DNA of 52,071 bases from NCBI GenBank assembly GCA_043718225.1, contig JAYSWD010000062.1:1-52071 (forward strand), given 5' to 3'. This document shows positions 20,415-48,674 of the stretch, one piece after another; the first letter of the stretch is position 1; each line of letters starts with the position of its first letter. The notes beneath the pieces were generated by a model. That model had not been told where the DNA came from. It ran no database searches and was given only the letters and a program-made list of their open reading frames with translations. The position numbers and the translations under genes are program-made. This stretch comes from Candidatus Omnitrophota bacterium (GTDB taxonomy: Bacteria; Omnitrophota; Omnitrophia; Omnitrophales; Aquincolibacteriaceae).

Positions 20415-20459
20415 CTAGGTCTCCTGTCTCTAGTCTCTGGTCTTTAGTCTCCCGACAGG
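20415..20459. repeat. GTCTC-word repeat arm (right flank), overlapping the nuoI 3' end
   Basis: CTAGGTCTCCTGTCTCTAGTCTCTGGTCTTTAGTCTCCCGACAGG. Encodes the last residues (..LSGD) and the TAA stop (20444-20446) of nuoI. Confidence 0.65.
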
Positions 20460-21101: not shown

Positions 21102-24100
21102 TTAAGCGGCGCTGGAAGTGATGCGCGAGCTAAAAATGCGATCGACCAGCCAGGCTAGATCAAGATCAAGGTAAAATCTCTTAATCTGTGAATCCATTAG
21201 CCGCTGAGTGTCAGGCACAACTTTTTTAAGTTCGACAGCAACTTGAATGTCATCGTTCGAACTTAACCAGCCGCGCAAAGCCGTCGACTTATTCCCCCGC
21301 GCAAATTTAGCGGCGTCAACAACAGATAAAAACGCTTTTACGTTTTTAAGCCCAAGCAGATCCACTTGCCTTTGAATTTCAATGCGTTGCTTTTCGTTTT
21401 CCGCCAGCACAGCCACAAATTGACCCACATAATTATGTTTAACCGCTTGCAAAAACCCTTTATCAAGCGCCAATTTTTCGCCTAAAACAAGTCCATCCGT
21501 AATATATGCGGCCGAATTCAGTTTCTGCAAAGCACGATCCGTCTTTGCCATTTTCATTTGTTCCGTCAGTTCAGAAAAGGCTACCGCAAAAAACTCCCGA
21601 AACTCGCTTCTCGAAAAACCCCTAACGACTTTAACTGAAAAAACATCTTCTGCTACTTTTGCCGTTGCTTTCGCCGCATCCGACACCAACCGGTTTTCGG
21701 AGCGGTAAAAATCAACATTTTCCGATATTTTTTTCCATTGCGGCGGTTTCTTAACAATATCCGCTCCACGTATAAAAAAAGCCGCGATGCCCGTTGGATT
21801 ATTCCTTAAATGCGCTGAAAGCTGAGGCGGGTTTCCGGCCAGACCAAAACCATAAATTAATCCCGCATCTCCGTATGCAAATGGATAATCATAGTTATGA
21901 GCCATGTAAAATTTGAGTGTTATCTGCCTCCCCTGAAACTTAATTACAAGCTGTCTGGCCGTATCATCAAACTTTAATAATTGAATATTTTTAGAATTTA
22001 AAAAACCCCTTAAGTAGCCTTCGCCGGGATAAAAAAGGAAATCAAATCCCCTGTGATCGACATAACTAATTTCATCTGACATATCGCCTAATACAAAAAT
22101 GGGTGTAAGAATATCTAGCCCGGCACTGTAATAAACAGCTTTTCTACGGTTCGCCTCGGGAACCAGACGCCGCACGGCTTCTTTTTCAGCATGAGTAATC
22201 CAACCTGCCTTGCGCACCTCTCCTTCCTTTGCTCTTTCCCAAATGTATCGATACTCAGGCCAATTGGAATATTCCGGTAAAAGAGCGCGTATTTCAGCAG
22301 GCATGCTTCGCGCATAGCCCAACGCTAAATCGTACGGAATTTTTACTCGTTCACTCCCGGGAGTCTCGCTTACTACATCAAGTCGTCTGTTGTTTTGAAT
22401 GAGCTTGTTAATACGATATTCTTTCCTTTTTAAAACAAACTCAAAAATTTCAGCAATGCTCCTGCGATTCTTATCAAAGTCTCTTCCTAAAATTAGAATC
22501 GCTTCCGTTAAATGCTTTGTTTTTTGGCGCGTCATCAGCCAATAAAGCTCTTTTGAACCCGGCTTCAACGCTGTTGCTTTTTCAATAATTGTTTTTACGC
22601 GTGGATTAATTACACTTATTTTTTGACTCCGCATCTCGGAGCGCTTTACCGCACGGGTCGGCGATGAAGCTGAAGCTTTGGCGCCAGGGGAAGCGGGCGC
22701 GGCCTTCACCGCTTTTTCTATTTCAGGCGGCGCGATAAAGCCGTTTTTTGAGCTGTCGTCCGCCGGTATCACATGAATCCAAAATCCTTTAGGAAGTTCA
22801 ACGCCTGACAAATCCTTTTTCAATTGATCTCTCAATTTTTTTGTATCGCCGCGCCCCTGTTCAAATGCTACGGCGGGCAAGTCAACACTGCCGCGTTTGA
22901 TACGAACCATTCTCACATAATTGCCCGAATCAGGCGGTACTTCCATTGCGTCTTCCTCGAGTTCGGCGGTAAAAGAAACTTCCAATCGTACGGCTTGCGT
23001 GCGTACTCCCCGCGTGATTCCAAATTGATAAATACCGCTAATTACTACTCTAGTATTAAATAAATCTTCCGCTGACACATCCTCATATAACTTTTCATCC
23101 AGCGAATTGTCGGGGCGTCGAGTTATTACAATCCCCATTCTGTCCGGCGGCTCGCCTCTCGCTCCTTCTCCGTCCCGCGCTTCGGAGCGGATAGCGCCTT
23201 TTGCATCCGGAACAACATGGTTATCATCGTGGGTTACCGCAACCCCCCGTAACTCAGAACGTTCTGTTGCTTCCGCGCTATTCGGTTGCGCAACGGCTAA
23301 ATTATGTGAAACTCCGCTAATATCTTCAGTGGACAATCTCTCGTACCATGCTTTTTGCGCGCTAATAAATGAGCTCCCTTTTAATCTTTTGACATAGCCA
23401 CTATCTTTAAGCGCGCTAGGATGCCACTTGTAGTGCGTTTTCTGTGCTGCAAGATTCATTTCCCGCATGTGAACTCGGCTCCCATGATGAAAATAAACTT
23501 GAAAATTAATGTGCTCTACGGATTCTGCGGTACGACCTGCAATAAACATTTGATTTAAGAGTGTCAATATTTGAGCGCCTGAAGGATGGGCTTCAAATTG
23601 CAGTCTTTCAATCCTTGCGGGTGTTTCATCCCGCTTATTCAAAAGCTGCTGAGCAGGATCCCTTTCACCAAAAACATCCACAAACACAATCGCATTTCTT
23701 GAATCCCATTTCAATCTTTGCGCAAATTCACCGGCTGTTCCATTGCCATTGGCGGGACTGGCGATAATAACAGTCGGAATATTATTTGGAGCGGTGTGTT
23801 CTTGTAATGCCCGGTCATGACCACCGCGTGAAACCAGTATTACATTGGGGCCCGTTAGTTCTTCTGGAAATGTTGCTTGCCAATTGGCCGTATAAGTGCC
23901 TGCTTTCCCGTCGACAACAATTTTCATGCGGTTGCCAAACTTAGCCCTATTTTTAAGCAAAATATGAAGCACACGCTGCGCCATACCATTTGCGCTGACG
24001 GGTAATAAAATCTTGCCCTCTTGTTTGACGGTTGCTTGTACTAACGCGACCAGTTTTTCTTCTTCTTGCTTTTGGTCCGGAATAATTTCCATGCCGCGCG

Positions 24101-42100: not shown

Positions 42101-45100
42101 CTGCGGCTTCTCCCGCGGCAACGATCAGAATCCCCAAAAAAACGGTTTTGTGGAATTTTTCTTTTAACCTATTTTTTTCGTCGCTTGTATTTATATCTCT
42201 CATTTCGGAACGGGGGCTCGTAAACTCCGGATCATTCGCGCGGTTAGGAATGAAATTTTTAATTCTGTGCAGCAATTGGCCATATTCTTTGCGCGCATGA
42301 TCATCGTAAGAATATTCAAGGTCCATTTGGTGATACATATCCGCAAGTCCTGTTTCAGTTAAACCGGGCACGAGCAGCAACATTTCTTCAAAAGTTGTCT
42401 TCCTTACAAAAAAATCAATGAACCATGCGCGGTTTTCTGCGGCAAATGCATTCAATAAAATTCGGTCCCAAGCCGCGGGCATTGCCTGTCCGTTGCTTTC
42501 AAGCGGGTGTAGCAAGTTCTCAAAAACCCAGGGAATACTTGGTCTAATATAGTTAACATTTTCTGTCCGGCTGGCCGTTTCAATTTCACGAACAGCCTTA
42601 AGAAGAGCCGGACGGTGCTCAACAACAAAATTCTGCAATGGATATAATGATCGAAAGGATTTAAGAGACGGCTCATTTCGCCCATAGGGCCCGACAACGA
42701 TTCCGTCATGCCAGCCCGGATGGGCCCAGTAATACAGAGAGCCCGCTAAGTAACTGGTTAAGCCAACTTTCAAACTGACAAGCAATTCTTCTTGGTCTTT
42801 CTGCGGAACATTCGAATCAAACTTGCCCGTTTCAAGCGTGCGGATAGCCAATGTCAAACTGCGGCGCGGGAAAAAATCGGCCCATTCTTCCTTATACGGG
42901 CCTTCCATCGTCAAACTCTGCACGTGCATGCCAAGTAAAAAAAGCGTAAATGCGGCCATGCGGTATTGATATTCACCGGGCAATTGAATGCCGCGTCCCG
43001 CGAGACGCATTTCTGTTTTTAACTCTGCACCTGTTACAGCCTGATTCGTCGCCAGCTGCATCAGAAGCGTCAACGATAAACCCCATTTTCTTTGCGAAAA
43101 ACGTTGATTAAATTGCGCTACTATTGTTTCGATTTTCTTTAAATCCTGCAAATCGGGATTTGCGCTCGCAAGTACAGCGGTTGCAATCGCCATAAAAAAA
43201 TTCATCCATGCGCGCTCAGCAACAGTCGATGTCTCCCCTTTTATTCCTGATTCCATCTTGTGTTTAAAGGCGGACCAATGCTTGTCAAAAAAGCTCAATT
43301 CGTCTTGATGAAACTTGCCGCGAATTTGGTCGACAATACCATTCAATGCCTGGGCGTCAACTTGACCAATCGCCATTTGGCGTTCCGCCTGTTCAGCCCA
43401 TCTTTGCAAATCTGCAGAAAATATTTTTGCTTCCCGCATTTCGGAGCGGGCAAGACGCAATGCTCGGCCGGTCTGACGCACAGTTTTTATCACATTTTTT
43501 TCAATGGGCGGGCGGCCGGTTTTTTCCTTAGACTCGAGATTTAAAGAAAAGCGGTAGACATTTTCTGCAAAACCAACAATGGCGGCGGTCGAAAAAAGCG
43601 CAACGGGACCGTGTATATTTTTTTCATGCCACTCTAGGAATTTCTCCGGAGTTAAAAATCGATAAACATTAATCCCGGGAAAACGGCGCCCCAGCCTGAC
43701 AAGCGTATCCTTAGCGATATCTTCATCAGGATGTACCACCACCAAATGTTCAAAGCCGGGCACGGCCGCATCGCCTTCAATGAACATGGCCTGCCTATTC
43801 GCTTTGCTTAAAAGTTCGCGAAAATCAAACCAGCGAATGTTCCCTGTCTTTTCAAATGGCTGTAATTCTTTAAAAAAATCACCGTTTCTCTTGGCCGCTG
43901 GAAGCGTTTTGATAATGCTTTTCTCAACTAACCCAACCGCAAAATGCACATGCGCCGCGACGGGTGATTTTGGATTCCGGCTTTTTGCGATTTTCCCAAC
44001 CATACTTCCCGCTTGAATTTTACGGCCTATTTTGATTTGCTGATCCAAGTCCAAATGCATATAGAAAGTCATGGGAACGTACGTTTTTCCTCCAAAACTA
44101 ATTTCTGCCGGATGCAAAAATGCGGCTGTTTGGCGCATGTTGTCATCGAAAATCCAATAAGCTACGCCTTCACCAAAAAATGCGGGAACGGACGTGCCGA
44201 TCAAAATATTGCGCCGATTCGCATGTGTATCCTGTAAATAAACGAGATCGGTCGCTTCATGCCGGTTGCCGCCAAAAGATTCTTGGCGTAGTTTCCCCTG
44301 CCCCCAATGTGTCCTGAGATCGGCATAACCCATGCCGCGGCCAATTACGAATTTTTCATTTCGACCCAGACGATTCAGCATTTGCCGCAGCCTCTCCGCA
44401 AATCTCGCCGGTTCAAACCCCTGGCTTATTAATTGCTGCTTAATTTTGGAATGCTCAGCCGGTGTCAATAAATACGCGGGCCATGACTCCGAACCATCAG
44501 CGCGGGCAACAGATGGTTGATCCCGCATTTCGGAGTGATTATTTTCAACTTCCCAAAAAATATTTTCTGAATGATTCCTGTCATAATCACCTTGGAACCG
44601 GCGACCGCTATAAGCATCCTTCCGGATTGGGAAAAATTTATCGATGTGATGAAGAATCGTTTTTTCTTCCATGTAAGGGCGCATATCGGCAAGTAAATAA
44701 GCTCGACCTTCTTGCAGCAATTCTTTTGATTTAGCCAGCCATTCGCGCGGATTGCCAAGCGGGTCTGTGCTTAAATCAATCATCGTCACAAGATCAAATG
44801 AATGCGGCGCAAGATTGTTTTGTGTTAAATCAAGCTTCCCAATTTCAGCGTGAATAACGGGGTAGAGCAAAGGAGCAATTCCTTTGGCTTCTAATTGGTC
44901 ATTTAAATTTTTTCTGGCCATGCTTATGGAACGCGTTAAGGCTGCATCGCCATCAACAAAAACTACATCTTTCCCCATTAAATATAAAAAATGGGGCAGC
45001 CATTTTGAGCCGTTACCGGCCACCAGCACTCGCTGAACAGGCCGCTGTGAAATTTCTTCCGCAATGATTTTTGTCCGGTCAAGTTCATCTCTAAGCTGAT

Positions 45101-48100
45101 CCAGATTTAGCCGGTTGACTGACCTAATTTCTGAAAATAAATCGTAAACTTCCTGCGGTGTTAAATCTCTGCGCAGTTCGGAGCGTTGAAACAACTGACC
45201 CTTCCCAACCGCGTAGGTTGAACCTACGCGGTTATTCGAGGTAGCAAGCGCCCGCATTTCGGAGCGTGCAAGCTTTTCCAGCGAGGGACGAAGCCATACG
45301 AGTCCACGTTCCAGCGTTGTTCGAACTGCGTGAATTTCCTGGTAATAATTTTCAAAAGCGGCGCGAACCTCGGGCGTAAATGCTTCACGACTTATCGCGG
45401 AGTACTTTTCCTGTTCCTTGGCGATTCGTTGTAAGAAGAAATCAATTTGATCGGTTCCAGTAGAAGGTGGCCGCAGCTTTTCTACCCAGCCTTCAACCAT
45501 TTTAATTTCTGTAATTGTCGGCTGCTCCCCATCGTCACTCTTCCCATCTAACATCTGTAATACGGTCGTTGCCATTTTTTGTCTGCTCGATTGACTTTCC
45601 AACGCTAACACCTTCGCCGCAACGTAAGCTAAGGTTTGATTGCTGTGAGTACGAAAAAATTGTTCCAAACTGCTTCTGAAGTCTGCTGATTGAGCACTAA
45701 GTGCTCGCATCAAAACCTCAAATGCTTTTGACATATGGCTACTTAAAGACGGTACAAACATTTGCCAAAGCTTAACGGTTAAATCGTCCGAAAGAATTTG
45801 CGTGCGCTCGGCTGATTTCAAGGCGCTTTCAAAAATTTGGATGTCGCCTGAAAAATAGGGGCGTAAGAATCCTTTAGGCTTTTCATAGAATCGTTTTTTG
45901 AATAATTTCTGCGCCACCTCACCCGTCACCTCCGGGACCAACAACTCAGAAAGTTCCTTTTCAAGCTCTCTCTGTATTTCGAAATCATGAAACCACTTCT
46001 TGACTGCCCCAACCCATTCCCACACCCTTTCCCACCCCCGCATTTCGGAGCGAACCTTAACCAAAGGCGGTGTCTGAATATTGGGATCTCCCTCCAGCTC
46101 AATCGTATTGCTGTCCAGCCATAAAACACGTCCGATTTCCTGCATAGGCTCCATTTTAAAAATCTTTCCATCATCGGTTATTCTTAATGTCATACCCAAA
46201 TTAAGATTCTGCGGAATGGCAGTCTCCGGAGCCGTTTCGCTGATTTTTTCGACCTGATATAAACCGTCTCTCTGATTTAAAACCCGCAGGCTAATATATG
46301 CCTGCGCGCTCCTGTCAGGAGTCACCATTAAAACCGAGCCCTGTTCTGGTTTACGGGGATCCAAAAATGGTCCCCGTGCAGACCATTCTTCAAATGGCTG
46401 CTTAACCGCTTTGAGAGAAGAGCCGACTTTTAAATCTGAAAGCCATCGGGACAGAGCTCTAATCAATGAAAAATTTCCGGTCTCACCGACAAAAAACCGT
46501 GCATGCTCGGTTTGCGCCTCCCATATCAGCCAATTTAAAATGGTTAATCCAACCGCTTGCCCCTGATATGTTTTAAAACTTTCTTCTGATGCGCCGCCAA
46601 GCGGATGAAAACCATGAACAATTTGGTAGCCTTTTTTACCGTCTGGAAAAATATTCCTTATAAAAGCAACGGACCCCGTTTTTTTATTTTCGATAAAAAC
46701 ATCAGCGTGATAAAAATCATAGGTCCCGTATTTCTCGTCCATCCCCTTTTCTGAAAATTCGACCGCGAGCCGAACAGATGGGCCGCCGTTTTTTAAGTTT
46801 TTTAATTCGATTTGACGCACTTTAACTTTTTTGGGCCATTTTTTAAAAAAACCTTTCCGAGATTCGGAACGAGCTTTCACGAATGAATTGCGAATAGCCG
46901 CTGGTGGCTTGCGAGAAACCATTGGGGACAGTGCTGAAACAGCTTGGTACCCTTTGATTTCAGCACGCCAAGACTGTGGCTCAAACGGATGCGGTTCAGC
47001 GGGACTCATCGCTCGCAAATGCGACGTCGCGGTCATGAGCTTCAAATAATTCTCGCGCCCTTTGATTTGGGCAATTCGAGGCTGGATACGGACGTAGGAA
47101 ATATTATTCTGTTTGAGCAGTTCGCCCAAACCCGCAGAGTGAAAACCTCCGGTGATGATCGCCGCCTTTTCGATTTTTTCTTTTTTAATCCAGGCGAGCG
47201 TGTTATTAAACATCATCTCATCTCGTTCTTCAGCTGTTGTGTAAAATTCAACCGCCTTCTCGCAGACAACCTTAACGCTCGCGGGCCACGAACCACGAGC
47301 CACGTTAACGTCCATGCTCTGCCGTGGCCCGTGGTCCGTGGTCCGTGGAACGAGCTGTTGCCACTCATCCTTAGAAAGTTCAAGACGCAACAATTTCCGG
47401 AGCAAAAGATATTCGCGGTATTTTTGAATGAGTTTTTTCTCATCCGGAGTTTGCGCCAATTTTTCAATCAGCTTGTCTTCGAGGTTTTTAATTTCTTTGA
47501 TCAAAGCGGGGGCGTCCAATTCCTGTGTAAGAATCTGCTTCCCCCACTCCTTGGAAAGCACGGGATAATCTTTGAACTTAAAACCTTTCGGCGATGCCCG
47601 CTCATAAAAATTTTCAAAAAACTGACGGACATCTCCGCGTTCCACGGGCCACGGACCACGAGCCACGGAGAGAACGTCTTTGGACAATCCTTTTTGACCC
47701 AACCATTCGCCCAACCGCTTTGTTTCTATTTCTATATTCGTGTTTCGTGGCTCGTGGCCCGTGGCTCGATCGTAAGATTTCAACTTTTGAAATCTGACGA
47801 GCATGGGCCAATCGTATTGTTCGCGTGCATCGCCCAAGTCTAGATTTAAAGATTTGCGCGCATGGCTTGCGAGCGACTCGATATGACGGGCATAATCTGT
47901 TTGAACTTCTTCCTGAAAACTCCATTGCCGAAAATAAGCGGCAAGCTCTGGATTTAAAACCTGCGAAGCTTTCGTCAAAAGCCCGGACTTCATTTCATTC
48001 AAGAAAGCGTTGGATTTTTCCTTCGCGCTTATCACAGCACGAAATTGTTCGAGATTTTTTTTGTAAAGATCGAGATCTTCGATTCCATAGCCCTCAACGC

Positions 48101-48674
48101 GTGAAGCGTGAAGCGCATTTCGCATCTCGCCCGCTTCACGTTTCACGAGATACGCTTCACTGCTTTTTTGAGCATTAGCTAAAAAAAGCTCAGGTCCCCC
48201 GACAATGCCTTTTTCGGTCAGCTCAGAAAGAATCTTTTCATTCTCACTTGAATCCTTTGAAAATCGCAGCAAGGCCGGGTCGAGCTTGCTCCAGGCGCCT
48301 TCGAGAAAAAAAGTTTGAATTCCATATTCTTTCTGCAAATGTTCGAGAATCGCCTGTGTATTTTTCTGAGCTTCGGGTTCACCGTGCGCATCTTCGATAT
48401 GGATAAGTTCCACGGGCCACGAGCCACGAGCCACGTCAAAACTCGAAATTTCTTGGATGGATCCAAGCGATGATGGAATTTGAATTTTATTCACCAGCGA
48501 TTCAACTTTTATCCCATCGCTGACGACTGACCTCTGATCACTGATCACTTCGGAAAATGGAGCCGGCGCGGCCCATGCGGCCGTTTCCAAAAGAAAAAGC
48601 GCCGCCATGCTGACAGCGACGGCTTTTTTCCAAACTGTGCGGGCTTGTAATTTAGGCATTAAAATTGTACGCAA
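21102..48674 (-). CDS. giant multidomain secreted/membrane protein (9,190 aa in the track; about 9,185 aa from the first ATG)
   Basis: One stop-free frame of 27,573 nt. The first ATG (48659) gives MPKLQARTVWKKAVAVSMAALFLLETAAWA|AP, a Sec-type signal. Several recognisable enzyme folds lie in the same frame (see sub-features). The track start at 48674 is TTG. Confidence 0.85.
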   Translation of the reverse strand: MRTILMPKLQARTVWKKAVAVSMAALFLLETAAWAAPAPFSEVISDQRSVVSDGIKVESLVNKIQIPSSLGSIQEISSFDVARGSWPVELIHIEDAHGEPEAQKNTQAILEHLQKEYGIQTFFLEGAWSKLDPALLRFSKDSSENEKILSELTEKGIVGGPELFLANAQKSSEAYLVKREAGEMRNALHASRVEGYGIEDLDLYKKNLEQFRAVISAKEKSNAFLNEMKSGLLTKASQVLNPELAAYFRQWSFQEEVQTDYARHIESLASHARKSLNLDLGDAREQYDWPMLVRFQKLKSYDRATGHEPRNTNIEIETKRLGEWLGQKGLSKDVLSVARGPWPVERGDVRQFFENFYERASPKGFKFKDYPVLSKEWGKQILTQELDAPALIKEIKNLEDKLIEKLAQTPDEKKLIQKYREYLLLRKLLRLELSKDEWQQLVPRTTDHGPRQSMDVNVARGSWPASVKVVCEKAVEFYTTAEERDEMMFNNTLAWIKKEKIEKAAIITGGFHSAGLGELLKQNNISYVRIQPRIAQIKGRENYLKLMTATSHLRAMSPAEPHPFEPQSWRAEIKGYQAVSALSPMVSRKPPAAIRNSFVKARSESRKGFFKKWPKKVKVRQIELKNLKNGGPSVRLAVEFSEKGMDEKYGTYDFYHADVFIENKKTGSVAFIRNIFPDGKKGYQIVHGFHPLGGASEESFKTYQGQAVGLTILNWLIWEAQTEHARFFVGETGNFSLIRALSRWLSDLKVGSSLKAVKQPFEEWSARGPFLDPRKPEQGSVLMVTPDRSAQAYISLRVLNQRDGLYQVEKISETAPETAIPQNLNLGMTLRITDDGKIFKMEPMQEIGRVLWLDSNTIELEGDPNIQTPPLVKVRSEMRGWERVWEWVGAVKKWFHDFEIQRELEKELSELLVPEVTGEVAQKLFKKRFYEKPKGFLRPYFSGDIQIFESALKSAERTQILSDDLTVKLWQMFVPSLSSHMSKAFEVLMRALSAQSADFRSSLEQFFRTHSNQTLAYVAAKVLALESQSSRQKMATTVLQMLDGKSDDGEQPTITEIKMVEGWVEKLRPPSTGTDQIDFFLQRIAKEQEKYSAISREAFTPEVRAAFENYYQEIHAVRTTLERGLVWLRPSLEKLARSEMRALATSNNRVGSTYAVGKGQLFQRSELRRDLTPQEVYDLFSEIRSVNRLNLDQLRDELDRTKIIAEEISQRPVQRVLVAGNGSKWLPHFLYLMGKDVVFVDGDAALTRSISMARKNLNDQLEAKGIAPLLYPVIHAEIGKLDLTQNNLAPHSFDLVTMIDLSTDPLGNPREWLAKSKELLQEGRAYLLADMRPYMEEKTILHHIDKFFPIRKDAYSGRRFQGDYDRNHSENIFWEVENNHSEMRDQPSVARADGSESWPAYLLTPAEHSKIKQQLISQGFEPARFAERLRQMLNRLGRNEKFVIGRGMGYADLRTHWGQGKLRQESFGGNRHEATDLVYLQDTHANRRNILIGTSVPAFFGEGVAYWIFDDNMRQTAAFLHPAEISFGGKTYVPMTFYMHLDLDQQIKIGRKIQAGSMVGKIAKSRNPKSPVAAHVHFAVGLVEKSIIKTLPAAKRNGDFFKELQPFEKTGNIRWFDFRELLSKANRQAMFIEGDAAVPGFEHLVVVHPDEDIAKDTLVRLGRRFPGINVYRFLTPEKFLEWHEKNIHGPVALFSTAAIVGFAENVYRFSLNLESKEKTGRPPIEKNVIKTVRQTGRALRLARSEMREAKIFSADLQRWAEQAERQMAIGQVDAQALNGIVDQIRGKFHQDELSFFDKHWSAFKHKMESGIKGETSTVAERAWMNFFMAIATAVLASANPDLQDLKKIETIVAQFNQRFSQRKWGLSLTLLMQLATNQAVTGAELKTEMRLAGRGIQLPGEYQYRMAAFTLFLLGMHVQSLTMEGPYKEEWADFFPRRSLTLAIRTLETGKFDSNVPQKDQEELLVSLKVGLTSYLAGSLYYWAHPGWHDGIVVGPYGRNEPSLKSFRSLYPLQNFVVEHRPALLKAVREIETASRTENVNYIRPSIPWVFENLLHPLESNGQAMPAAWDRILLNAFAAENRAWFIDFFVRKTTFEEMLLLVPGLTETGLADMYHQMDLEYSYDDHARKEYGQLLHRIKNFIPNRANDPEFTSPRSEMRDINTSDEKNRLKEKFHKTVFLGILIVAAGEAAARYWHFPFLSDFYLFVKSFHWGGVAVGELCVSLVIAAATGALTDYYTQIISDYPAYKHHVKERFFYFMLMRFALGLITFISNYYLIDLFKNHAARFILSASIGVFFSSLAGVYFNGYWNRKGIRAMERAGEAHENISNYSSLKQWKKDGKGVLGRLPIVVAMHDFAQNVVPDLRIPVVFIVGFFLQLFRNLMANSQNPRISLPGYFKVNILAVSGFALLGGTNTAIISAFSIIAVTTISTVIVRRYTSARSEMRGDQIHFIADQAPPVWKPRAVTALKHSASRLLERVQKWRAAYETKEKLNPERHEFDTGGGIAWFEPEAPFLQKERVHQAEQMLAHAARDWSNASSDHLRQLRDMRPWSLKGLLDRMSLGDPTLYGPYIADFYAAYAAFEPQTFDEYMSALKEMYDQKLEEYEEKMPGVNQTEWETIFKLAIRTQSAKAYKEFKKQRNRDTKSIKNWPEYFFKIIKRYLKIHAPALYPYLENALILKQGDRGRAKILLHTRKWGDLEFISLLDGGRIKGDAWNAAAYHDSEFNSDRSEMRSNTNEIPDWVKAFEENLKSRSANFEKHTGIKMRVSNSLQDGIFIYLVPADEGLQKEFSRIDAQLQLDNVSFYNGEIGRVALMPVLTGGENLEEKRAFLIREIHPGVAFRHIFKEGNLSFLGYDEARKKVLERHLDEWVHEILMEVFSASTDTADIDAVYVTPDDLSKIQNPGIVYDQDLRFYLRPFKGWLPRKLISYRSVFHTWTEVNERNNQDVLDYKIAKMGLGGEWNLWRWSLNDEKELVVGIEDQVHQRFSRLANRVIEKSRQSNGMTWATKGGELGVTAASGAALPALIEGKILSVWNDSDEKAVLIEGHHLVTVYRGLKLSEDVHIGKYFNAGATIGNVLSGKPAKIQFFWIPNPRDLGKALDLETLSRWQRQRRVFLLQPEHLFTTQRSEMRTNESPEAALRRKAFFTKYQNGAEISPEVREIYLQIFPKPLRDEYGIGEEIAVAGEAAGLRPRAQVIELTQAVGTEHADLALEFFKILPQATTVNSFEIILRAKNDVLTIETEGDLPKFKQATNEFGNYYSSVLRYWLQYHLFPAARRMGFHEIQIKNQRNPAHVLIPTGFTPVGTGAIWSKNLISLEVFGKTEDEQIHALEEEWHDWLPADVTMRFKRDDKGVSINSPSKFHVVFYHKLPDGGLGEPIKIKGKGLGAEKIAEFALARSGADPFINFEKIIAGVPSPSLTSLEMFRGMQYWLQRRGFRGSELWKNTLGLSKEKRSTWLDQVVAIWKREGRMPTVSKTGPVYNFRGIYFYLPEIDLSPRRSEMRIDPADAAAFRSQEFYRMHVELRHLQDAYRAALDQSGNTDEVENKIEAYAEGLTPYFREIRSGDDTENAVFKTITAMDEIAAREFLNRVKKEVYAKEKIWRQKYLTAGPPDVFLKDLLFSYKQRLKAQIRLLGFYLSDAYHNQSTLGTLSLAISSTYRQIGKVHDAYQVQAKTAAPKVSVVSEQGTRIHTLNYEGHPVFRIWTAPDGKIVVHQVVWKYVSQANGPRILVPAVTPFHFQDLETAYRGRTKVIKSQEKDHAELLERHLELAQIIEELRDPEIDKAGSAEDWEKRLALIAEGKGGLNRKIAIVQKEGRALPRPKDSVSMALSDIKAQRWGDAAFHLEQADTWVQTRLDDVIRKKELGERKIPFLYHKLRKQALKSAVIQLEKSIQSARPNAENVASAREKLEEIEATYFKFVVSDPNYRQVQSRLKLLVVTTKTLEGMFARKAKTVSQIAGILKNSGEIKKSIARWNLKPARSEMRDELIVGGDDAGNKQALLRLAEKFIREKIQSEENKFLVKWLRFKRPRLEVNDTLAEEFSEFLSKQAFALGYWQPVFEKIKAENGHEPALRIMPAQHFIESIPVLAEDLLLHTAGYLERSQTRRLFLQNLFGALVAVAANPALEAFHNLAVKELDKETLKILSHVLWDAVSKTRPRLSAAAAPLQYERNALVSFLANDLGPNEEYLHEAWLRKNGTAIHSAAAWLRSQMPLRAWPVYFKDLFFGKTTEGLPTLFATPFADRGVFQISSFDHLLQAALPRLARIESWVGSLSDETVKQLDHIRRHANLEAIGLSSNNNNQRALEVATREHIAEQKNEVEAKQSLDKASISEQQWWWDYYQNQMIENLHGRVDYEDYKADLEAQRQVEEKIRALRQQIEALSAEEKKEASLFQGLMNALQQFDLLQQAEPAALILPASETRSEFRKQGIYSPFGSLIISLAMLLLTGIAYLRGTYSYATFLITGLSLFLMILSLSALRKVPSQKWYEPLSKPPLTEKQKKEIRDAIRPFDGYGPLGILLARSRQNPGKFIYILVKSKQSQNPLFASPIVEGPDGMHIEDQPKIWDGFTGEQLAGREDWQPEPEIIYSDASVHAALSKINFLENGLLTSMYADEPSDVLGNMLMAPLLTPAIYLGAGITAHSDLPPDQAFLSNWFVIGQLEGQDAELGRKISHILNPSRSETRVKEESETGDSRRETNWVLSGETDVVEGNVAQRGFVAKLFTRVQNIYARSEMRLNYAKGIRLFFKNVVFVGVFYAMAWFAYSNLFSLMGNILGYVALLAVAVRINEKFGDNFEWRLNTLINAARPIIQLSTPEKLSKKVAWLNRFGRLHLKFESKNTDVIVQNHRFYNVIGMHASTYAAIPGEPYGVYIHHKQGVSFVYFAGSAGVLSRKLSKKSVAKLESETRDFLNFAYAPALFHDRYNKSEVSLKKIARDFILTGFFGAVVCVSIYKLTFNDFGFWGTSLWSGLYVTATYFGFAGNISAFATGVTELFTVVTASLWGRLSPHQMQLTRLSSRRSEMRRQIQTNAQRLMTNDSEQSQQSSADHVQSESGIITNLSTSNVTNLFATFSGVSWPMSRSIAWSKALTVGGWTLSHTKPGVLKKLYRLPSEKSRSRVMRMRPSNLASWTTAPFLIPLGTVMTSWVMESARMTSIRIFSSARKRNLGGKAQRVSAIRQLRREMKRSPNRIHRQRGEAFQNSLGSFSGLENFQRLRNQNAGSTETGLAMADFGVARDMSLNQSVHAGKFSTRPQGGQVIRPDIRSEMRVSNIAELQRQLNKPTTVMFSDTYENLTKPDAFQEKSKILAQHPIAKPIYEQALKILGKISGAKNMSYLYLEGFDPAHPNTVQLTYSGFVYEYALYLVLKNKLGKRFKTAHFYGKSMGQFAALAASDAVSFEDMAQYVLRISRLFYLSQRRYGKQLRYVRVIGSGLGEPSIRKKIIEKLKAYSGDEPQITVDEGDEYFQIVVRVAQGKEDSFSAMIKGLGKELRAEGIPAGVRLSAIQLDPSAYQNPHHSYNEKIHAAILEATHGLKIENPKIPLIPFSINSTEVLDDADKIRRELGNGFYETLASERALDVVRQSSGLAIEVGYGSRLTKALAKRNPPKAIAAIDDLFQRPASEESQAKQSLLNHPYFGNSIRRALLDFKKKTKKSGSLNDLTKSINKKRRAVISSGLYRRLEAKEIGDFLAANSVLNPDFFESIKDVSYALENRKKYKFKNDPAILAKENTGLYRAAARHGFEWHDGGWHEPADPQLETTKYLLTAEEHAKVLPQLNNSAFDAETLAAGLRQMLASLGRDEQIVIGPGTGYGDEKTFWGDLKTRRKSYNGHWHTSTDVVYLQDRQGNRRPVPIDTTVPALFGKGKVHWIFRDNMAQSVVYFHQGEVEIDGEVYVPMTIYMHLELDEAVQPDHESEPGSAVGKIVDSQNKKSPVAAHVHSGVGFFKKSILEAISQAAFKKGKYDENLTYVLQDFEKTGDIRWLDFREMLKPDDRKALFIEGPEAAPGFQYMAVIGPDEKKRSLLTPALGRQFPTIPFLKFDTWKAFIKWRRQNRDSTVALFSKNRSAKLTLDTKVHFVSIHGPEEIEGKMPGVRDEGKKLRLARSKARSEIRGVSEEQILKFLPLLSGVNLKEVLQLTQPGEALYGFDLKEYAGFTSLQPAVMSQSKNKRARHGSLATLLTGAAIIKGRALGLPEGVIRPVPGGVNNNGGLKDVGAFQKSFKEWVFDPLVQKFEMIKLQTSAPDNAFTLRVRNPSPAEVVFPPAFQMTDFAARSADDATQFLREFVLAARPYLPKNSKILIDAVLGGYDLQTPLGKERFSLRWIPEYGGGYLSYSPGTAAPDVHAEIRASEFQMLELVRRGEDIQMTVVVTPGSMIKFKEIAQRLPPNIRIASAEVRRVRTNQKFNIHELIDATVKRSASGLRLELHSKNRHGLFKVAANKSGNKHAWINPDIAEGVASTASLDLKKKPMGILQLADGWIFYHFLGYENRQHQLQFIYTYSRSEMRLAQGEAAQFAQDPIVVQTRLSRETLDPLIQKIKEKIGSRSRMKYVNLVLQHLQAIVNSGAEPEIYGFDELRWSKDSYLLGFTSKNKMSLGNGFFDRAAFKDKEEYLDFTSEALFRAGIESLLSKTDRGGLPREDGLIGKLSKSVFGASKNEKYLELYQKFVDLTEPRFLKSAVARFNAFTEGSPYFSTEYLMENWMRYDKEDKPYPVFQQAGYLTAKLVPLIEVKKDILTPALPSGISQSNKEQREVLLEGLFKIVAPLFIFCVYRYNLLSVQNETYKTMLSMVKDELNDQTPLGHQGLVGEPSETDIAQKVERSLRERKFVFSPTPPLIIHHTVFSGLSSEAFEAQTKQEEKLYKLFFFDMPEGWRQETLSMYTWNQADNVVPVPVLGAIKPLKILEILQILSGHRRGLMVAGDDSPAENLNWPGLSLINEEQSSRTPDGKVEVVTVYPRFAQFYAPRPKLFFHFDGPTKSVRIQTYAQSLWSDILAWLQPEKATYFTSANEPEKNLFISLMKVRAQLTEHTKRPGYFAPSGIDVGPWAAQISRLQAKVLLPLWEQSLKYYSSTHALLEAHKKPGNDRDLFRHYTMFTSPNGLFAWLAENLETIAGTDRLTDKAARNFLDVFMAVQWSSLGMQDLSAGNHFLYKKFSEFARLHPGGVSIPALDEFKKFLIQYVRAPAKNSTALREDFRSWKKQFAADYPEGINDEDNAIPTQSREWPYLKPGAGKAQLRFSQPSVFAPEEFPEADLLNPERYPVWLGVSGQVRAVWTGIYQKDGLHIPGSSYRYIIDQVKAGEILRVAVFENQVQISRVMPTAMGAEESEVLLITMLESFKREEGNRVGTWQKLPSTEIVEKAQPVGAERRIAGSGFFSLPLPVNSDGLVTFIYKDKKIRLNISQATGQSSVLIQVRKNHLIFYSANVEACLGQVDLSGGEPSSYPSGLIEILPGLHPAVEKIEPQSVVEYRNLNHLAGLLAPLMATGTGYETIALAREGTQILVGDKVVTIPAAFVNAPETLAQIPERLKAVLEEKDPVYIVKKHSNKLQTLLNDNPFDRGSGTWNILRDAVRLEKLDSDDAWLPQGKKEYEEIFFRLKKTLRWLRVIRKIDKAREAAAQTRGANNEFANMAQPGTLRPMLQRLAQNDLAGKVSSPFYFSKGRETAYSVPGAMKHGSIFKEMEGVGLMTPQFFELDSAGDFILREGMSHDEMPHIILRVKTSPVAGGTPAKYVLLIFNYNTGKRLDKVQHEYRSLQAKVAIAKKELFDHIQTLARKRSGTLIENEQRFNELLSHFLDAYDLPLQAEALNHLKDILPELLYSGNEVVKFAMLKILFEHIRIQGINDLPNKLTLEQARVIRQNLTLIFDPNLNGSMDFEAQSFEPFLDEVLVPAVHFTLWHLTNPDTYLELVTHLEGIRDHIKEYMDQFPDHANQITGTWTSVAHAKQYGLGTDVFPEKIQEYFVKKYFREKNEAEAAAARLAAERNAAAEAASRVRVQAKHVMQISSFGGNRTGTTSLGFTLGETTIIVDSGSSTHGEELRAPDYSELNEQNPPKAIFITHVHGDHVGYVLTLWKKLKKEVPVYLTPGSRALLPIVLKGMIGGSAGYSIDDVNEFLDKEKKYVRTLEPGKWYTVSPEMKVQFYPEAGHLRGAAPVVVATPYGNTVFLGDISVDDQGPIVGLKQWSPDIPIHTVIAESTRGMEIIPDQKQEEEKLVALVQATVKQEGKILLPVSANGMAQRVLHILLKNRAKFGNRMKIVVDGKAGTYTANWQATFPEELTGPNVILVSRGGHDRALQEHTAPNNIPTVIIASPANGNGTAGEFAQRLKWDSRNAIVFVDVFGERDPAQQLLNKRDETPARIERLQFEAHPSGAQILTLLNQMFIAGRTAESVEHINFQVYFHHGSRVHMREMNLAAQKTHYKWHPSALKDSGYVKRLKGSSFISAQKAWYERLSTEDISGVSHNLAVAQPNSAEATERSELRGVAVTHDDNHVVPDAKGAIRSEARDGEGARGEPPDRMGIVITRRPDNSLDEKLYEDVSAEDLFNTRVVISGIYQFGITRGVRTQAVRLEVSFTAELEEDAMEVPPDSGNYVRMVRIKRGSVDLPAVAFEQGRGDTKKLRDQLKKDLSGVELPKGFWIHVIPADDSSKNGFIAPPEIEKAVKAAPASPGAKASASSPTRAVKRSEMRSQKISVINPRVKTIIEKATALKPGSKELYWLMTRQKTKHLTEAILILGRDFDKNRRSIAEIFEFVLKRKEYRINKLIQNNRRLDVVSETPGSERVKIPYDLALGYARSMPAEIRALLPEYSNWPEYRYIWERAKEGEVRKAGWITHAEKEAVRRLVPEANRRKAVYYSAGLDILTPIFVLGDMSDEISYVDHRGFDFLFYPGEGYLRGFLNSKNIQLLKFDDTARQLVIKFQGRQITLKFYMAHNYDYPFAYGDAGLIYGFGLAGNPPQLSAHLRNNPTGIAAFFIRGADIVKKPPQWKKISENVDFYRSENRLVSDAAKATAKVAEDVFSVKVVRGFSRSEFREFFAVAFSELTEQMKMAKTDRALQKLNSAAYITDGLVLGEKLALDKGFLQAVKHNYVGQFVAVLAENEKQRIEIQRQVDLLGLKNVKAFLSVVDAAKFARGNKSTALRGWLSSNDDIQVAVELKKVVPDTQRLMDSQIKRFYLDLDLAWLVDRIFSSRITSSAA
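22630..22643 (-). repeat. 14-nt junction motif, 1 mismatch
   Basis: CGCATCTCGGAGCG. Still RSEMR (GAG for Glu). Confidence 0.8.
23176..23189 (-). repeat. 14-nt junction motif, 2 mismatches
   Basis: CGCGCTTCGGAGCG, translated RSEAR. Confidence 0.7.
23461..24700 (-). other. giant ORF: metallo-beta-lactamase fold, beta-CASP-type (RNase J/CPSF-like) domain
   Basis: HVHGDH (24495-24512), then EAGHLRGAA, VIAESTRG, EGKILLPVSANGMAQRVL, IIASPANGNGTAGE, FEAHPSG and YFHHGS, in the order of MBL motifs 2-4 and beta-CASP motifs A-C. Confidence 0.7.
29167..29180 (-). repeat. 14-nt junction motif, exact copy
   Basis: + strand CGCATTTCGGAGCG, which reads CGC TCC GAA ATG CG (RSEMR) in the giant-ORF frame. 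Confidence 0.9.
30349..30362 (-). repeat. 14-nt junction motif, 1 mismatch, with local partial duplication
   Basis: CGAATTTCGGAGCG, translated RSEIR. Followed by GGCTTTGGAGCGGGC, which repeats the 3' half (peptide ARSKARSEIR). Confidence 0.8.
30363..31410 (-). other. giant ORF: M23 metallopeptidase, copy 2 (paralogue of 43449-44480)
   Basis: HTSTD (31170-31184) and HVH (30867-30875). Collinear with copy 1 over about 350 aa, from LLT.EEH.K to RLARS. Confidence 0.7.
31870..32874 (-). other. giant ORF module: FabD-like (malonyl-CoA:ACP transacylase fold) acyltransferase
   Basis: Nucleophile elbow GKSMG (32523-32537) within FYGKSMGQFAALAASDAVSFEDM. Later NPHHSYNEKIHAAILEA (His region) and LAIEVGYGSRLTKALAKR. 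These are collinear with the FabD motifs GHSLGEY.AL / SH / IEVGPG..L. The N-terminal GQGSQ motif is not conserved (FSDTYEN). Confidence 0.55.
32875..32888 (-). repeat. 14-nt junction motif, exact copy
   Basis: CGCATTTCGGAGCG, in-frame RSEMR. Borders the antisense-TA module. Confidence 0.9.
32943..33179 (+). CDS. DUF433 domain protein (putative antitoxin), antisense to and inside the giant ORF
   Basis: 78 aa: ITSDPEICHGKPCFRGTRILVSETLEILEAGETPEAILKSFPSLSMDSIRAALHFAA is the canonical DUF433 sequence. ATG at 32943; the track ORF opens at 32748. Confidence 0.75.
   Translation: MDTLIQTHITSDPEICHGKPCFRGTRILVSETLEILEAGETPEAILKSFPSLSMDSIRAALHFAAQLTNRGDSLSLAS
33169..33528 (+). CDS. DUF5615 (PIN-like / Mut7-C-like) protein (putative toxin), antisense to and inside the giant ORF
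   Basis: 119 aa: FLADENI....IRAL....DV..V......NGAVVQLAKLEGRILITRDRDF matches the DUF5615 pattern. 11-nt overlap with the DUF433 gene, as in type II TA pairs. TTG start in the track. Confidence 0.7.
   Translation: MPPKFRFLADENIRIEVIRALSITHDVITVPKGIKNGAVVQLAKLEGRILITRDRDFSEGNRYNFFNTPGFVWLKVHPPTVSALLQAMDLLIGQLTPEKVANKLVTLEVDKFVIIPDSD
33564..33606. repeat. TAGTC/GTCTC-word low-complexity element next to the TA pair, in frame in the giant ORF
   Basis: GTCGTTAGTCATTAGTCGTTGGGCATTAGTCTGTATCTGTCTC, directly abutting the motif copy at 33607. Confidence 0.55.
33607..33620 (-). repeat. 14-nt junction motif, exact copy
   Basis: CGCATTTCGGAGCG, in-frame RSEMR. Borders the antisense-TA module. Confidence 0.9.
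33621..34467 (-). other. giant ORF module: membrane module (2 N-terminal and about 3 C-terminal helices)
   Basis: FFKNVVFVGVFYAMAWFAY, ILGYVALLAVAV, FILTGFFGAVVCVSIY, LWSGLYVTATYFGFAG, ATGVTELFTVVTASLWG. Confidence 0.55.
34468..34481 (-). repeat. 14-nt junction motif, exact copy
   Basis: CGCATTTCGGAGCG, in-frame RSEMR. Confidence 0.9.
34581..34606. repeat. GTCTC-word element in frame in the giant ORF
   Basis: GTCTCTCGTCTCGAGTCTCCGGTCTC. Same word family as 20415-20459. Translated ETGDSRRET. Confidence 0.6.
34624..34637 (-). repeat. 14-nt junction motif, 1 mismatch
   Basis: CGCGTTTCGGAGCG, translated RSETR. Confidence 0.8.
35240..35393 (-). other. giant ORF: two-helix transmembrane hairpin
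   Basis: FGSLIISLAMLLLTGIAYL and ATFLITGLSLFLMILSLSAL, directly after the RSEFR junction. Confidence 0.55.
36718..36731 (-). repeat. 14-nt junction motif, exact copy
   Basis: CGCATTTCGGAGCG, in-frame RSEMR. Confidence 0.9.
38164..38177 (-). repeat. 14-nt junction motif, exact copy
   Basis: CGCATTTCGGAGCG, in-frame RSEMR. Confidence 0.9.
39280..39293 (-). repeat. 14-nt junction motif, exact copy
   Basis: CGCATTTCGGAGCG, in-frame RSEMR. Confidence 0.9.
40477..40490 (-). repeat. 14-nt junction motif, exact copy
   Basis: CGCATTTCGGAGCG, in-frame RSEMR. Confidence 0.9.
41341..41354 (-). repeat. 14-nt junction motif, exact copy
   Basis: CGCATTTCGGAGCG, in-frame RSEMR. Confidence 0.9.
41355..42198 (-). 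other. giant ORF module: polytopic membrane segment (about 7 hydrophobic helices)
   Basis: TVFLGILIVAAGEAAA, GGVAVGELCVSLVIAAATGAL, FMLMRFALGLITFISNYYLI, FILSASIGVFFSSLAGVYF, IPVVFIVGFFLQLF, ILAVSGFALLGG, IISAFSIIAVTTISTVIV. Confidence 0.6.
42199..42212 (-). repeat. 14-nt junction motif, 3 mismatches
   Basis: CTCATTTCGGAACG. The peptide is still RSEMR, but with CGT/AGA Arg codons. Confidence 0.7.
43435..43448 (-). repeat. 14-nt junction motif, exact copy
   Basis: CGCATTTCGGAGCG, in-frame RSEMR. Confidence 0.9.
43449..44523 (-). other. giant ORF module: M23 (LytM-type) metallopeptidase, copy 1, plus C-terminal extension
   Basis: HxxxD as HEATD (44247-44261) and HxH as HVH (43944-43952), separated by the usual beta-rich segment. 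Confidence 0.7.
44524..44537 (-). repeat. 14-nt junction motif, 1 mismatch
   Basis: CGCATTTCGGAGTG, translated HSEMR. Confidence 0.8.
44538..45171 (-). other. giant ORF module: class I SAM-methyltransferase-like Rossmann fold
   Basis: VLVAGNGSKW (motif I-like, 45000-45029), VVFVDGDAALTRSISMARKN (motif II-like acidic residue) and FDLVTMIDL (motif IV-like). Confidence 0.45.
45172..45185 (-). repeat. 14-nt junction motif, 1 mismatch
   Basis: CGCAGTTCGGAGCG, translated RSELR. Confidence 0.8.
45207..45233. repeat. perfect 27-nt palindrome in frame in the giant ORF
   Basis: AACCGCGTAGGTT-G-AACCTACGCGGTT, lying between two junction-motif copies 67 nt apart. Confidence 0.75.
45253..45266 (-). repeat. 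14-nt junction motif, exact copy
   Basis: CGCATTTCGGAGCG, in-frame RSEMR. Confidence 0.9.
46039..46052 (-). repeat. 14-nt junction motif, exact copy
   Basis: CGCATTTCGGAGCG, in-frame RSEMR. Confidence 0.9.
47284..47348. repeat. CCACG-word palindromic element in frame in the giant ORF
   Basis: GGCCACGAACCACGAGCCACG, 18-nt loop, CGTGGCCCGTGGTCCGTGGTCCGTGG. Translated PRTTDHGPRQSMDVNVARGSWPA. Confidence 0.75.
47642..47768. repeat. CCACG-word palindromic element (long loop) in frame in the giant ORF
   Basis: Arm CCACGGGCCACGGACCACGAGCCACGG (47642-47668) and inverted arm CGTGGCTCGTGGCCCGTGGCTCG (47746-47768). Confidence 0.7.
48099..48160. repeat. GTGAAGC-word palindromic element in frame in the giant ORF
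   Basis: GCGTGAAGCGTGAAGCGC ... CGCTTCACGTTTCACGAGATACGCTTCAC. Confidence 0.65.
48410..48435. repeat. CCACG-word half element in frame in the giant ORF
   Basis: CCACGGGCCACGAGCCACGAGCCACG, translated VARGSWPVE. Confidence 0.65.
48520..48548. repeat. TGATCAC-word low-complexity tract in frame in the giant ORF
   Basis: CTGACGACTGACCTCTGATCACTGATCAC, translated VISDQRSVVSD. Confidence 0.45.
48558..48659 (-). other. giant ORF: predicted signal peptide
   Basis: Basic n-region (KLQARTVWKK), hydrophobic core (AVAVSMAALFLL) and an AWA-like cleavage motif. Confidence 0.6.

Follow-up and report, generated by a model that had tools for sequence, protein, structure and literature searches.

A 9,190-codon Omnitrophota gene with a conserved leader domain, an iterated R-S-E-x-R junction and exchangeable cassettes, possibly encoding a precursor that is cut into parts

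Giant genes are already known from Omnitrophota, where an 'Archaeovorin' or multi-enzyme class has been published (West-Roberts et al. 2023, 10.1101/2023.11.21.568195; Nielsen & Lui 2026, 10.64898/2026.06.07.730766), and the points at which their products would be cleaved are stated as unknown (West-Roberts et al. 2023, 10.1101/2023.11.21.568195). Here, we analyzed a 52,071-nt stretch of DNA from a Candidatus Omnitrophota bacterium (GenBank assembly GCA_043718225.1, contig JAYSWD010000062.1, positions 1 to 52,071; hereafter the window), 53% of which is occupied by a single open reading frame (ORF) on the minus strand at 21102..48674, referred to below as the giant ORF. It shares with the published giants the phylum, a signal peptide, several transmembrane (TM) segments, a mosaic of divergent enzyme-type units within mostly unannotatable sequence, and an N-terminal region in which no domain can be identified; the published giants, too, are suspected of being cleaved after translation. 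It differs in its length of 9,190 aa, which falls below the cut-offs of the catalogues (>=10,000 aa or >90 kb; >30 kaa), in that SecA-DEAD, C39, S8 and dockerin domains were not detected in it by Pfam at E values up to 10, and in three features absent from both preprints, namely a leader domain, an R-[SAP]-E-x-R junction and the exchange of cassettes. The giant ORF is a shorter member of the known Omnitrophota giants, without SecA, C39 or S8; the leader-domain family, the iterated junction and the in-frame cassette exchange appear to be undescribed. How the products of such genes are organized and cleaved is an explicit open question, on which the leader, the junction and the cassette exchange all bear.

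Three other systems invite comparison. Polymorphic toxins carry junction motifs, VENN in CdiA and PxxxxDPxGL in Rhs, in which a short conserved peptide borders the constant and exchangeable regions and acts as a recombination joint and, in Rhs, also as a cleavage site. Those toxins have one junction and one variable C-terminal toxin accompanied by an immunity gene, whereas the giant ORF has 24 junctions and a string of cassettes, with no immunity-like genes evident. Viral polyproteins with a leader protease similarly place many products, short conserved linker sites and a protease in one chain, as the giant ORF would if it were cleaved as we infer; however, the giant ORF is a cellular gene in a housekeeping neighborhood (ATP synthase, complex I, superoxide dismutase [SOD]), and its cassettes can be exchanged and differ greatly from one orthologous locus to the next. 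MARTX toxins are processed after Leu by a cysteine protease domain (CPD) activated by inositol hexakisphosphate (InsP6). The candidate site in the giant ORF is instead an Arg-flanked pentapeptide and the candidate enzyme is N-terminal; glycine-rich RtxA repeats and a CPD are missing from the giant ORF, and type I secretion genes from its flanks. The likeness to MARTX lies in a huge secreted precursor with an array of unrelated effectors, which varies among strains by recombination and releases its effectors by linker cleavage, and in the effector RRSP, a sequence-specific endopeptidase of the TIKI superfamily with the same His-28-Glu geometry as our leader domain (PMC6254334). We regard this likeness as one of functional analogy only. 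On the features compared, the giant ORF belongs to none of the three systems, MARTX, polymorphic toxins or viral polyproteins, and resembles them in logic.

We are confident that the giant ORF is a real gene that follows the grammar of a family and is composed of exchangeable cassettes bounded by junctions. It consists of 9,190 codons plus a stop, with no internal stop codon, and in 60 of 60 sliding windows frame 1 outscored the other frames when judged by the codon usage of its neighbors, the ATP-synthase, nuo, SOD and peroxiredoxin genes. The ORF is thus real and coding throughout; an initial annotation made from the sequence alone had described it as a 27.6-kb ORF without stating its strand, now established as minus. 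The GC content is even along the ORF (0.44-0.47), and the sequence contains no sign of an assembly error. The earliest possible start is a TTG; the likelier one is the ATG at codon 6 (48659), which opens MPKLQARTVWKKAVAVSMAALFLLETAAWA/AP, a sequence with the classical n-h-c layout of a signal peptide. The probable ATG start and the Sec-type signal peptide (aa 6-36, AWA/AP) lie at 48567..48659 on the minus strand, the AlphaFold2 (AF2) model begins with a hydrophobic helix, and a hydrophobic N-terminal segment also opens the homologues; the Sec-type signal peptide of the initial annotation was accordingly recovered. Scans for promoters and terminators around the ends of the gene returned chance-level matches only. 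Cysteine is strikingly scarce, with 5 of 9,190 aa (0.05%), whereas it makes up 1.02% of the residues encoded by the remaining genes of the window. Judged by what is generally known of secreted proteins, this scarcity, taken together with the signal peptide, suggests that the chain is exported or translocated unfolded.

The feature that organizes the mosaic is the junction. The giant ORF contains 23 copies of R-S-E-x-R, 14 of which read RSEMR, and one HSEMR, and these 24 junctions, spaced 24-1,973 aa apart, divide it into about 25 cassettes. The corresponding 15-mer, CGCTCCGAAATGCGG, has 19 matches with at most two mismatches compared with 0.27 expected, all on the coding strand, all in frame and none elsewhere in the window, and it formed the largest direct-repeat family in an unbiased repeat search. 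The codon string CGC-TCC-GAA-x-CGG was present in 13 of the 23 copies vs 0.4% expected from the codon usage of the gene (p 4e-26), TCC being the rarest Ser codon of the gene outside the junctions. Three copies written in quite different codons still read R-S-E-x-R, as do copies with AGA, AGC, TCA or GAG codons in general, and this retention indicates that the peptide itself is under selection; as judged from its sequence, the junction is selected at the peptide level. Small residues precede it, S/T and acidic residues follow it, and the flanks hold almost no further information. The first junction lies in the disordered tail of the AF2 leader model. A metagenome scan with the exact 15-mer returned 120 matches, all of them single chance matches and none in arrays, so the exact 15-mer alone is not diagnostic. 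Neither of the two giant-gene preprints mentions such a motif, and a full-text literature search for the peptide strings yielded nothing relevant. Three other explanations of the repeat were set aside: internal start codons at the junction ATG, since most relatives have Leu, Ala or Val at position 4 and only about 40% of the codons there are start-capable; an RNA hairpin in the 15-mer, since on inspection the stem reaches at most 3 bp and is not kept across dialects; and a CRISPR-like or tandem array, since a repeat of just 15 nt recurs here at irregular intervals.

On the minus strand and from the N-terminus onward, the first junction is RSESR at aa 602 (46857..46871), which occupies the same position in homologues. 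It is followed by RSEMR at aa 875 (46038..46052) and aa 1137 (45252..45266), by RSELR at aa 1164 (45171..45185), which forms the left boundary of cassette M05, and by the variant HSEMR at aa 1380 (44523..44537), the boundary between M05 and M06, at which nucleotide homology blocks begin or end. A run of RSEMR copies then extends through aa 1743 (43434..43448), 2155 (42198..42212), 2441 (41340..41354), 2729 (40476..40490), 3128 (39279..39293), 3500 (38163..38177) and 3982 (36717..36731). Next come RSEFR at aa 4423 (35394..35408), in different codons with the same peptide, RSETR at aa 4680 (34623..34637), and RSEMR at aa 4732 (34467..34481), aa 5019 (33606..33620) and aa 5263 (32874..32888). The remaining copies are RSEIR at aa 6105 (30348..30362), RSEMR at aa 6499 (29166..29180), RSELR at aa 8472 (23247..23261), again in different codons with the same peptide, RSEAR at aa 8496 (23175..23189), RSEMR at aa 8678 (22629..22643), RSENR at aa 8991 (21690..21704), and RSEFR at aa 9022 (21597..21611), where AGA-AGC codons yield the same peptide. 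Four of the segments between junctions are very short (24-52 aa; aa 1142-1168, 4685-4736, 8477-8500 and 8996-9026), and the one at aa 4685-4736 is conserved in P0001, a homologue. They could be remnants left where cassettes were lost, or small peptides that are released.

The same arrangement extends across a large family. A profile of the first ~550 aa matched at least 9,748 clusters at 50% identity among 1.84 billion representatives, the match being N-terminal in every one of the 150 best matches listed; lengths reached 7,823 aa. In the best 151 representatives (P0001-P0151; 448,118 aa), on which our family statistics are based, 945 R-[S/A/P]-E-x-R junctions were counted compared with 35 after residue shuffling, and at least one was present in 126 of the 135 proteins longer than 1,000 aa. 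The leader is followed immediately by the first junction (median position, aa 616); successive junctions are a median of 220 aa apart, and a single protein can contain up to 30 of them. The giant ORF fits this pattern (first junction at about aa 560-700), with its first junction at aa 602 and 23 more behind it. Cysteine amounts to 0.07% of the residues of these representatives, enzyme-type cassettes included. Each gene uses a junction dialect of its own: the second residue is S, A or P, the fourth is M, A, V or L, and two copies from one gene resemble each other more than copies from different genes do (0/300 permutations). Scanning genomes with the N-terminal alignment yielded 73 loci, of which most of the named ones belonged to metagenome-assembled genomes (MAGs) of Omnitrophota, often with several per genome; about 25 were titled only 'uncultured bacterium', and a few came from Elusimicrobia, Auribacterota or Planctomycetales. 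In a protein search, the first 1,195 aa matched Omnitrophota proteins only. The view that this is a giant mosaic gene of a candidate phylum, as first suggested, agrees with this distribution, in which every close relative is an Omnitrophota MAG. In the flanks of the 73 loci, junction arrays occurred almost only in other giant ORFs, and two such arrays proved to be the tails of neighboring leader-domain genes on the same contig. Tandem leader-domain giant genes were seen on one contig in L060/L045 (JBMONI010000007.1) and L055/L009 (JBAYGD010000013.1), and several genomes contained at least three leader paralogues, each with its own dialect (RAExR, RPExR, RSExR). The window and the loci L001-L003 have divergent peroxiredoxin, SOD and secreted-protein genes upstream in common, which identifies L001-L003 as the orthologous locus; the search for syntenic giant ORFs in related genomes, suggested at the outset, was successful there (peroxiredoxin and SOD synteny).

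We compared the cassettes by splitting every protein at its junctions and aligning the resulting pieces. Against P0019, the 7,377-aa protein of locus L002, M05 aligned with module 7 over 216/216 residues at 73% identity, M06 with module 6 over 363/363 residues at 91% identity, and M13 (35409..36716) with module 19, its end-to-end homologue, over 439/441 residues at 60% identity. The homologues of M06 and M05 stand in reverse order in L002 relative to the window, and the nucleotide homology blocks between the two (89.6% and 76.3% identity) are bounded exactly by junctions, with unrelated sequence outside. L001 and L003 have a 672-aa cassette in common that is junction-bounded on both sides in both genes and located at different positions. 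Over 486 high-scoring segment pairs, 20-26% of the ends fell within 5 aa of a junction vs 2.8% at random. Synonymous divergence (dS) between the window and L002 was 2.4 for the leader, 0.86 for M05 and 0.41 for M06, and such different values in one gene pair indicate that the cassettes entered or were exchanged at different times. As far as sequence comparison reaches, the cassettes are independent units that are gained, lost, permuted and exchanged at junctions. The C-terminal cassette (aa 9027-9190; 21105..21596) corresponds by homology to the terminal cassette of both P0016 and P0019; its homologue in P0020 (aa 4510-4617 of 4657) lies near the C-terminus. P0016, with 2,554 aa, resembles a short version of the giant ORF, having the leader, several cassettes including M06-like and M09-like ones, and the C-terminal cassette. 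Close relatives have the leader and the tail in common and vary in the interior. The initial annotation was correct in describing a mosaic of unrelated modules; the organization into leader, junctions, exchangeable cassettes and C-terminal cassette had not been noticed.

The leader domain (aa ~37-550; 47025..48566, minus strand) is tentatively TIKI/erythromycin-esterase-like; a disordered linker (46872..47024; predicted local distance difference test score [pLDDT] 31-40 in AF2) connects it to the first junction. Its conserved residues comprise IHI(E/Q)DAH, an EG 28 residues on, an RD pair and GGFH. Among 187 leader domains examined, the AH-to-EG spacing was exactly 28 in 175 of the 178 in which an AH...EG pair was found, and GG[FYWH]H, containing the second His, was present in 187/187. 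In the giant ORF the His, the Glu and the second His are H97, E125 and H512, numbered H92, E120 and H507 in the alignment. The AF2 model, built from 24 sequences (pLDDT 80; predicted template modeling score [pTM] 0.73), shows a small alpha/beta core split by a helical insert of ~300 aa. The best Foldseek matches were Bcr135 (3b55, probability 0.80; 2rad) and EreC (6xcq, 6xcs), with the fold matches to 3b55, 2rad and 6xcq having probabilities of 0.28-0.80 and E >= 0.06. Weak Pfam matches to ChaN ('Tiki superfamily'), DUF5682 and DUF5694 recurred across 24 leader members, ChaN reaching E 0.006 in 3 of the 24. The TIKI signature is formed by His-85 and Glu-113 in Bcr135 and by His-3902 and Glu-3930 together with His-4030 in RRSP, the MARTX endopeptidase (PMC6254334). 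The leader agrees with the TIKI/TraB/ChaN/erythromycin-esterase superfamily in its invariant His and the Glu exactly 28 residues later, after the first two core strands, and in its second His in GGFH after a later strand; it differs in that the core is split by the all-helical insertion of ~300 residues and in that the first Glu position of the 2His/2Glu set holds either E or Q. From these motifs and the model, it is likely but unproven that the leader belongs to the TIKI/erythromycin-esterase hydrolase superfamily.

The genes of the family encode, in order, a Sec signal peptide, a leader of ~550 aa, a disordered linker and heterologous cassettes, each ending in R-[S/A/P]-E-x-R, to which close relatives add the common C-terminal cassette. 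We propose the following mechanism. The precursor would be exported or inserted via Sec, with membrane cassettes possibly serving as an anchor, and a junction-specific endopeptidase would cut it at the junctions into separate effectors. The released parts would include a beta-CASP RNase, two LytM/M23-like hydrolases, a GxSxG acyl-hydrolase-like unit, a Rossmann-like unit and many unassigned units, which could act on or in a partner or prey cell. The leader domain of the gene itself, which keeps the His/Glu/His signature of the TIKI/erythromycin-esterase hydrolases, would be the best candidate for this enzyme, and the 15-nt junction might double as a short in-frame homology for cassette swapping. 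Taken as a whole, the reading of a real giant gene with family grammar and exchangeable cassettes, encoding an exported multi-effector precursor cut at its junctions, seems to us evenly poised between right and wrong. Its most far-reaching form, a bacterial polyprotein system in which a TIKI-like leader cuts the junctions and frees up to dozens of exported, cysteine-free effectors, with the 15-nt junction as the joint for exchange between genes and genomes and the grammar extending across at least 9,700 clusters, is a possibility that we put forward tentatively. The initial annotation had placed the whole apparatus in one polypeptide; this is doubtful, as 24 conserved junctions in linkers suggest a precursor that is cut into parts. 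Its proposal of a secreted or contact-dependent attack or surface-remodeling role is compatible with the extreme avoidance of cysteine; the signal peptide, the membrane segments and the intact nuclease are present as well. The M23, methyltransferase and FabD assignments are weak.

Several results weigh against this reading. Cleavage at the junctions is inferred from sequence patterns. For the leader, Foldseek gave no match at E <= 1e-3, and the searches against Pfam, NCBIfam and PDB sequences gave no hidden Markov model at a curated threshold and no significant match. No co-loss of the catalytic residues with the junction arrays was found, as leader proteins free of arrays keep these residues. 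The homogenization of junction nucleotides within a gene also fits a DNA-level role or gene conversion. The K/R bias that would tell on which side of the membrane the junctions lie was near-even (18 vs 14). Cytoplasm-type cargo in relatives, such as isocitrate lyase and a histidine kinase, has no obvious function outside the cell.

One alternative is a giant membrane-anchored multi-enzyme protein that is never cut. The junction would then be a linker element between domains, serving as a hinge or a capping motif or as the place where a chaperone, translocase or partner docks. The junctions do lie in small or polar, probably flexible linkers, the several membrane cassettes could hold the entire chain at the envelope, and the literature leaves the cleavage of Omnitrophota giants open (10.1101/2023.11.21.568195). 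However, a simple spacer needs no near-invariant pentapeptide across leaders of ~25-30% identity and unrelated cargo, the inter-junction segments of 24-52 aa make little sense as domains joined by hinges, and the arrays are linked in cis to a domain that has retained a hydrolase signature, so we consider an uncut protein rather unlikely. If the junction acted mainly on the DNA level, as a 15-nt in-frame recombination site (a microhomology or recombinase target) whose peptide is a tolerated by-product, one would understand why homology blocks are bounded exactly by the 15-mer while cassette order is permuted, why cassettes differ in dS, why the junction codons are far more uniform than gene usage predicts (13/23 vs 0.4%, p 4e-26), why the copies are more similar within than between genes (0/300 permutations), and why each gene has its own dialect at positions 2 and 4. 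That account sits poorly with a peptide that is kept under codon change (AGA-AGC-GAG..., CGA-TCA..., CGT-TCT-GAG-TTA), with a position 4 that stays hydrophobic or small while its codon varies, with the lack of a recombinase or other conserved partner gene adjoining the loci, and with a motif that is not palindromic and occurs in direct orientation only. As the main explanation it is improbable in our view; a DNA-level role of the junction is nonetheless compatible with the cleavage model and does not exclude it.

The two remaining alternatives are effectively excluded. The window is metagenomic-type sequence unverified by reads, which leaves a very slight chance that the apparent single ORF is chimeric through assembly or consists of decayed or fused genes. 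Against this stand the 9,190 codons without a stop, frame 1 as the best frame in 60/60 windows and the even GC of 0.44-0.47; the sole repeats are the 15-nt junctions, which are too short to mislead an assembler. Moreover, the same locus in three other MAGs has ORFs that are still open at the edge of the retrieved DNA, after about 3,800-3,900 aa, the L002 gene encodes 7,377 aa, and family members reach 7,823 aa in independent assemblies. Less probable still is a known giant class, be it a repeats-in-toxin (RTX) or Ig/cadherin adhesin, a polyketide synthase or nonribosomal peptide synthetase (PKS/NRPS), a MARTX toxin or a CdiA/Rhs polymorphic toxin. In logic, its size, its signal peptide and its mosaic makeup do recall MARTX and polymorphic toxins, yet Pfam and NCBIfam searches at E values up to 10 gave no PKS/NRPS, RTX, Ig, cadherin, CPD, Rhs/YD or haemagglutinin families, a repeat scan found no tandem repeats, and the flanks have no type I or two-partner secretion genes. 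The initial annotation had seen neither tandem Ig/cadherin/RTX-type repeats nor PKS/NRPS motifs, and both statements hold, the latter also for the ketosynthase (KS), acyltransferase (AT), acyl carrier protein (ACP), condensation (C), adenylation (A) and thiolation (T) families of Pfam and NCBIfam; its proposed profile check for a known adhesin or PKS/NRPS class was run and returned no such families.

The junction provides a rule for splitting giant proteins in silico, and units with a median of about 220 aa are tractable for structure prediction and annotation. It also yields a testable map of where such proteins may be cut, and, combined with the leader, a defined peptide and a candidate enzyme for bench testing. 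Should the polyprotein reading be true, it would supply the missing cleavage map for the giants of this leader-domain family, and the map could extend to much larger giants, provided that they carry the same junction. The giant genes evolve by in-frame exchange of cassettes, which makes this a bacterial counterpart of exon shuffling. The leader family itself is very large (at least 9,748 clusters at 50% identity) and is represented by no model in Pfam or NCBIfam. That cysteine is almost missing from nearly half a million residues suggests a shared constraint, of which export or translocation would be the simplest.

The giant protein was searched against Pfam and NCBIfam as ten overlapping 1,000-aa pieces, and ~85% of it had no match to a known family, in line with the several kilobases of unrecognizable sequence noted initially. 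The 1,973-aa cassette M20 ends, on its C-terminal side, in the clearest unit, a metallo-beta-lactamase (MBL)/beta-CASP nuclease (23355..24686, minus strand; HVHGDH at aa 8055). Over aa ~7997-8440 it matched Pfam Lactamase_B (9e-11; 42.5 bits vs a cut-off of 22.7), the cassette matched NCBIfam aCPSF1 at 2.9e-28, and the matches among PDB sequences included aCPSF1, FttA, TTHA0252, IntS11, CPSF73 and type VII Cas14, down to 6e-19. Its motifs are intact (HxHxDH as HVHGDH, GH, D, ES, H, HH; beta-CASP motifs A-C), while the Pfam Beta-Casp domain itself remained below threshold (19.6 vs 27.7). As a sequence-based assignment the beta-CASP MBL nuclease is solid, and the fold named by the initial annotation is retained. 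The best profile and structure matches of this cassette are archaeal aCPSF1/FttA, not bacterial RNase J, and only two relatives, remote ones at 27% identity, were found in a set of 5.8 billion proteins.

The other enzymatic assignments are less firm. Two M23-like paralogous cassettes, at aa 1385-1747 and aa 5751-6109, are 44% identical and represent the sole internal paralogous pair of the giant protein (M06/M18b), which was recovered by module-against-module BLAST after whole-protein self-BLAST had missed it owing to BLAST culling. Copy 1 is cassette M06 (43449..44522; HEATD at aa 1472, HVH at aa 1575) and copy 2 is the second half of cassette M18 (30363..31424; HTSTD at aa 5831, HVH at aa 5934), both on the minus strand and recognized by paralogy and motifs. 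Two M23 modules had been claimed; both copies carry the HxxxD and HxH motifs, Pfam M23 stayed below threshold (17 bits vs 28.7; E 0.0028-0.02) and a profile search of PDB sequences with M06 gave no significant match. A metagenome scan with the M23-like alignment likewise returned no matches. A link to cell-wall degradation would rest on these two sub-threshold cassettes. Cassette M05 (aa 1169-1384; 44538..45170, minus strand) is weakly Rossmann- or methyltransferase-like: VLVAGNGS and VVFVDGD can be read in it, and the methyltransferase-like Rossmann fold proposed for it gains from Methyltransf_12 matches in 3/3 homologues and loses by all of them being sub-threshold (best E 0.0046). A profile search of PDB sequences with M05 gave no significant match, and a protein search with M05+M06 gave no matches. 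The FabD-like acyltransferase was not upheld: the weak match to TIGR00128 (32457..32765, minus strand; E 6.7e-5) covers ~100 residues and profile positions 20-115 only, is confined to the GxSxG nucleophile elbow (GKSMG), and scores 22.5 bits vs a cut-off of 260.9. The three separate TM clusters of the initial annotation were found at aa ~2180-2434, 4435-4482 and 4745-5000, together with a single extra hydrophobic segment at aa 6750. On the minus strand, cluster 1 lies in M08 (41373..42137; about 5-6 hydrophobic segments), cluster 2 in M14 (35229..35372; 2 segments) and cluster 3 in M16 (33675..34442). In relatives (P0081, P0006, P0008 and others), the cargo behind the leader includes isocitrate lyase, a PAS/histidine-kinase unit, a MafB19-type deaminase, an RNase T exonuclease and an RNA polymerase alpha C-terminal domain (CTD), all of them domains of cytoplasm or toxin type that follow a signal peptide.

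Within the leader domain, a 29-nt direct repeat with an internal 7-nt periodicity occurs three times (47276-47304, 47639-47667 and 48407-48435; 79-93% identical) and encodes VARGSWP or VARGPWP in loops; copies 2 and 3 are missing from P0001, which is 58% identical. The neighbors of the giant gene are ATP synthase, nuo (complex I), SOD and peroxiredoxin genes, and no conserved neighbor gene for a protease, recombinase or secretion system was found at the homologous loci. On inspection, nuoJ, K, L, M and N-like genes lie at 9339-15509 on the plus strand, and a lone 2x[4Fe-4S] nuoI-like gene lies directly downstream of the giant gene (20444-21049, minus strand), with no other complex I genes in the window. 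Incomplete respiratory chains have been reported for the phylum Omnitrophota, and the partial complex I set of the window fits this pattern. At 16762-17256 on the minus strand, a small secreted-looking protein combines a poly-Thr tract with a long tail behind it that is rich in Lys (KKPKKKSSKKKARSKKKAKK...), and is highly basic and of low complexity, with a composition like that of histone H1.

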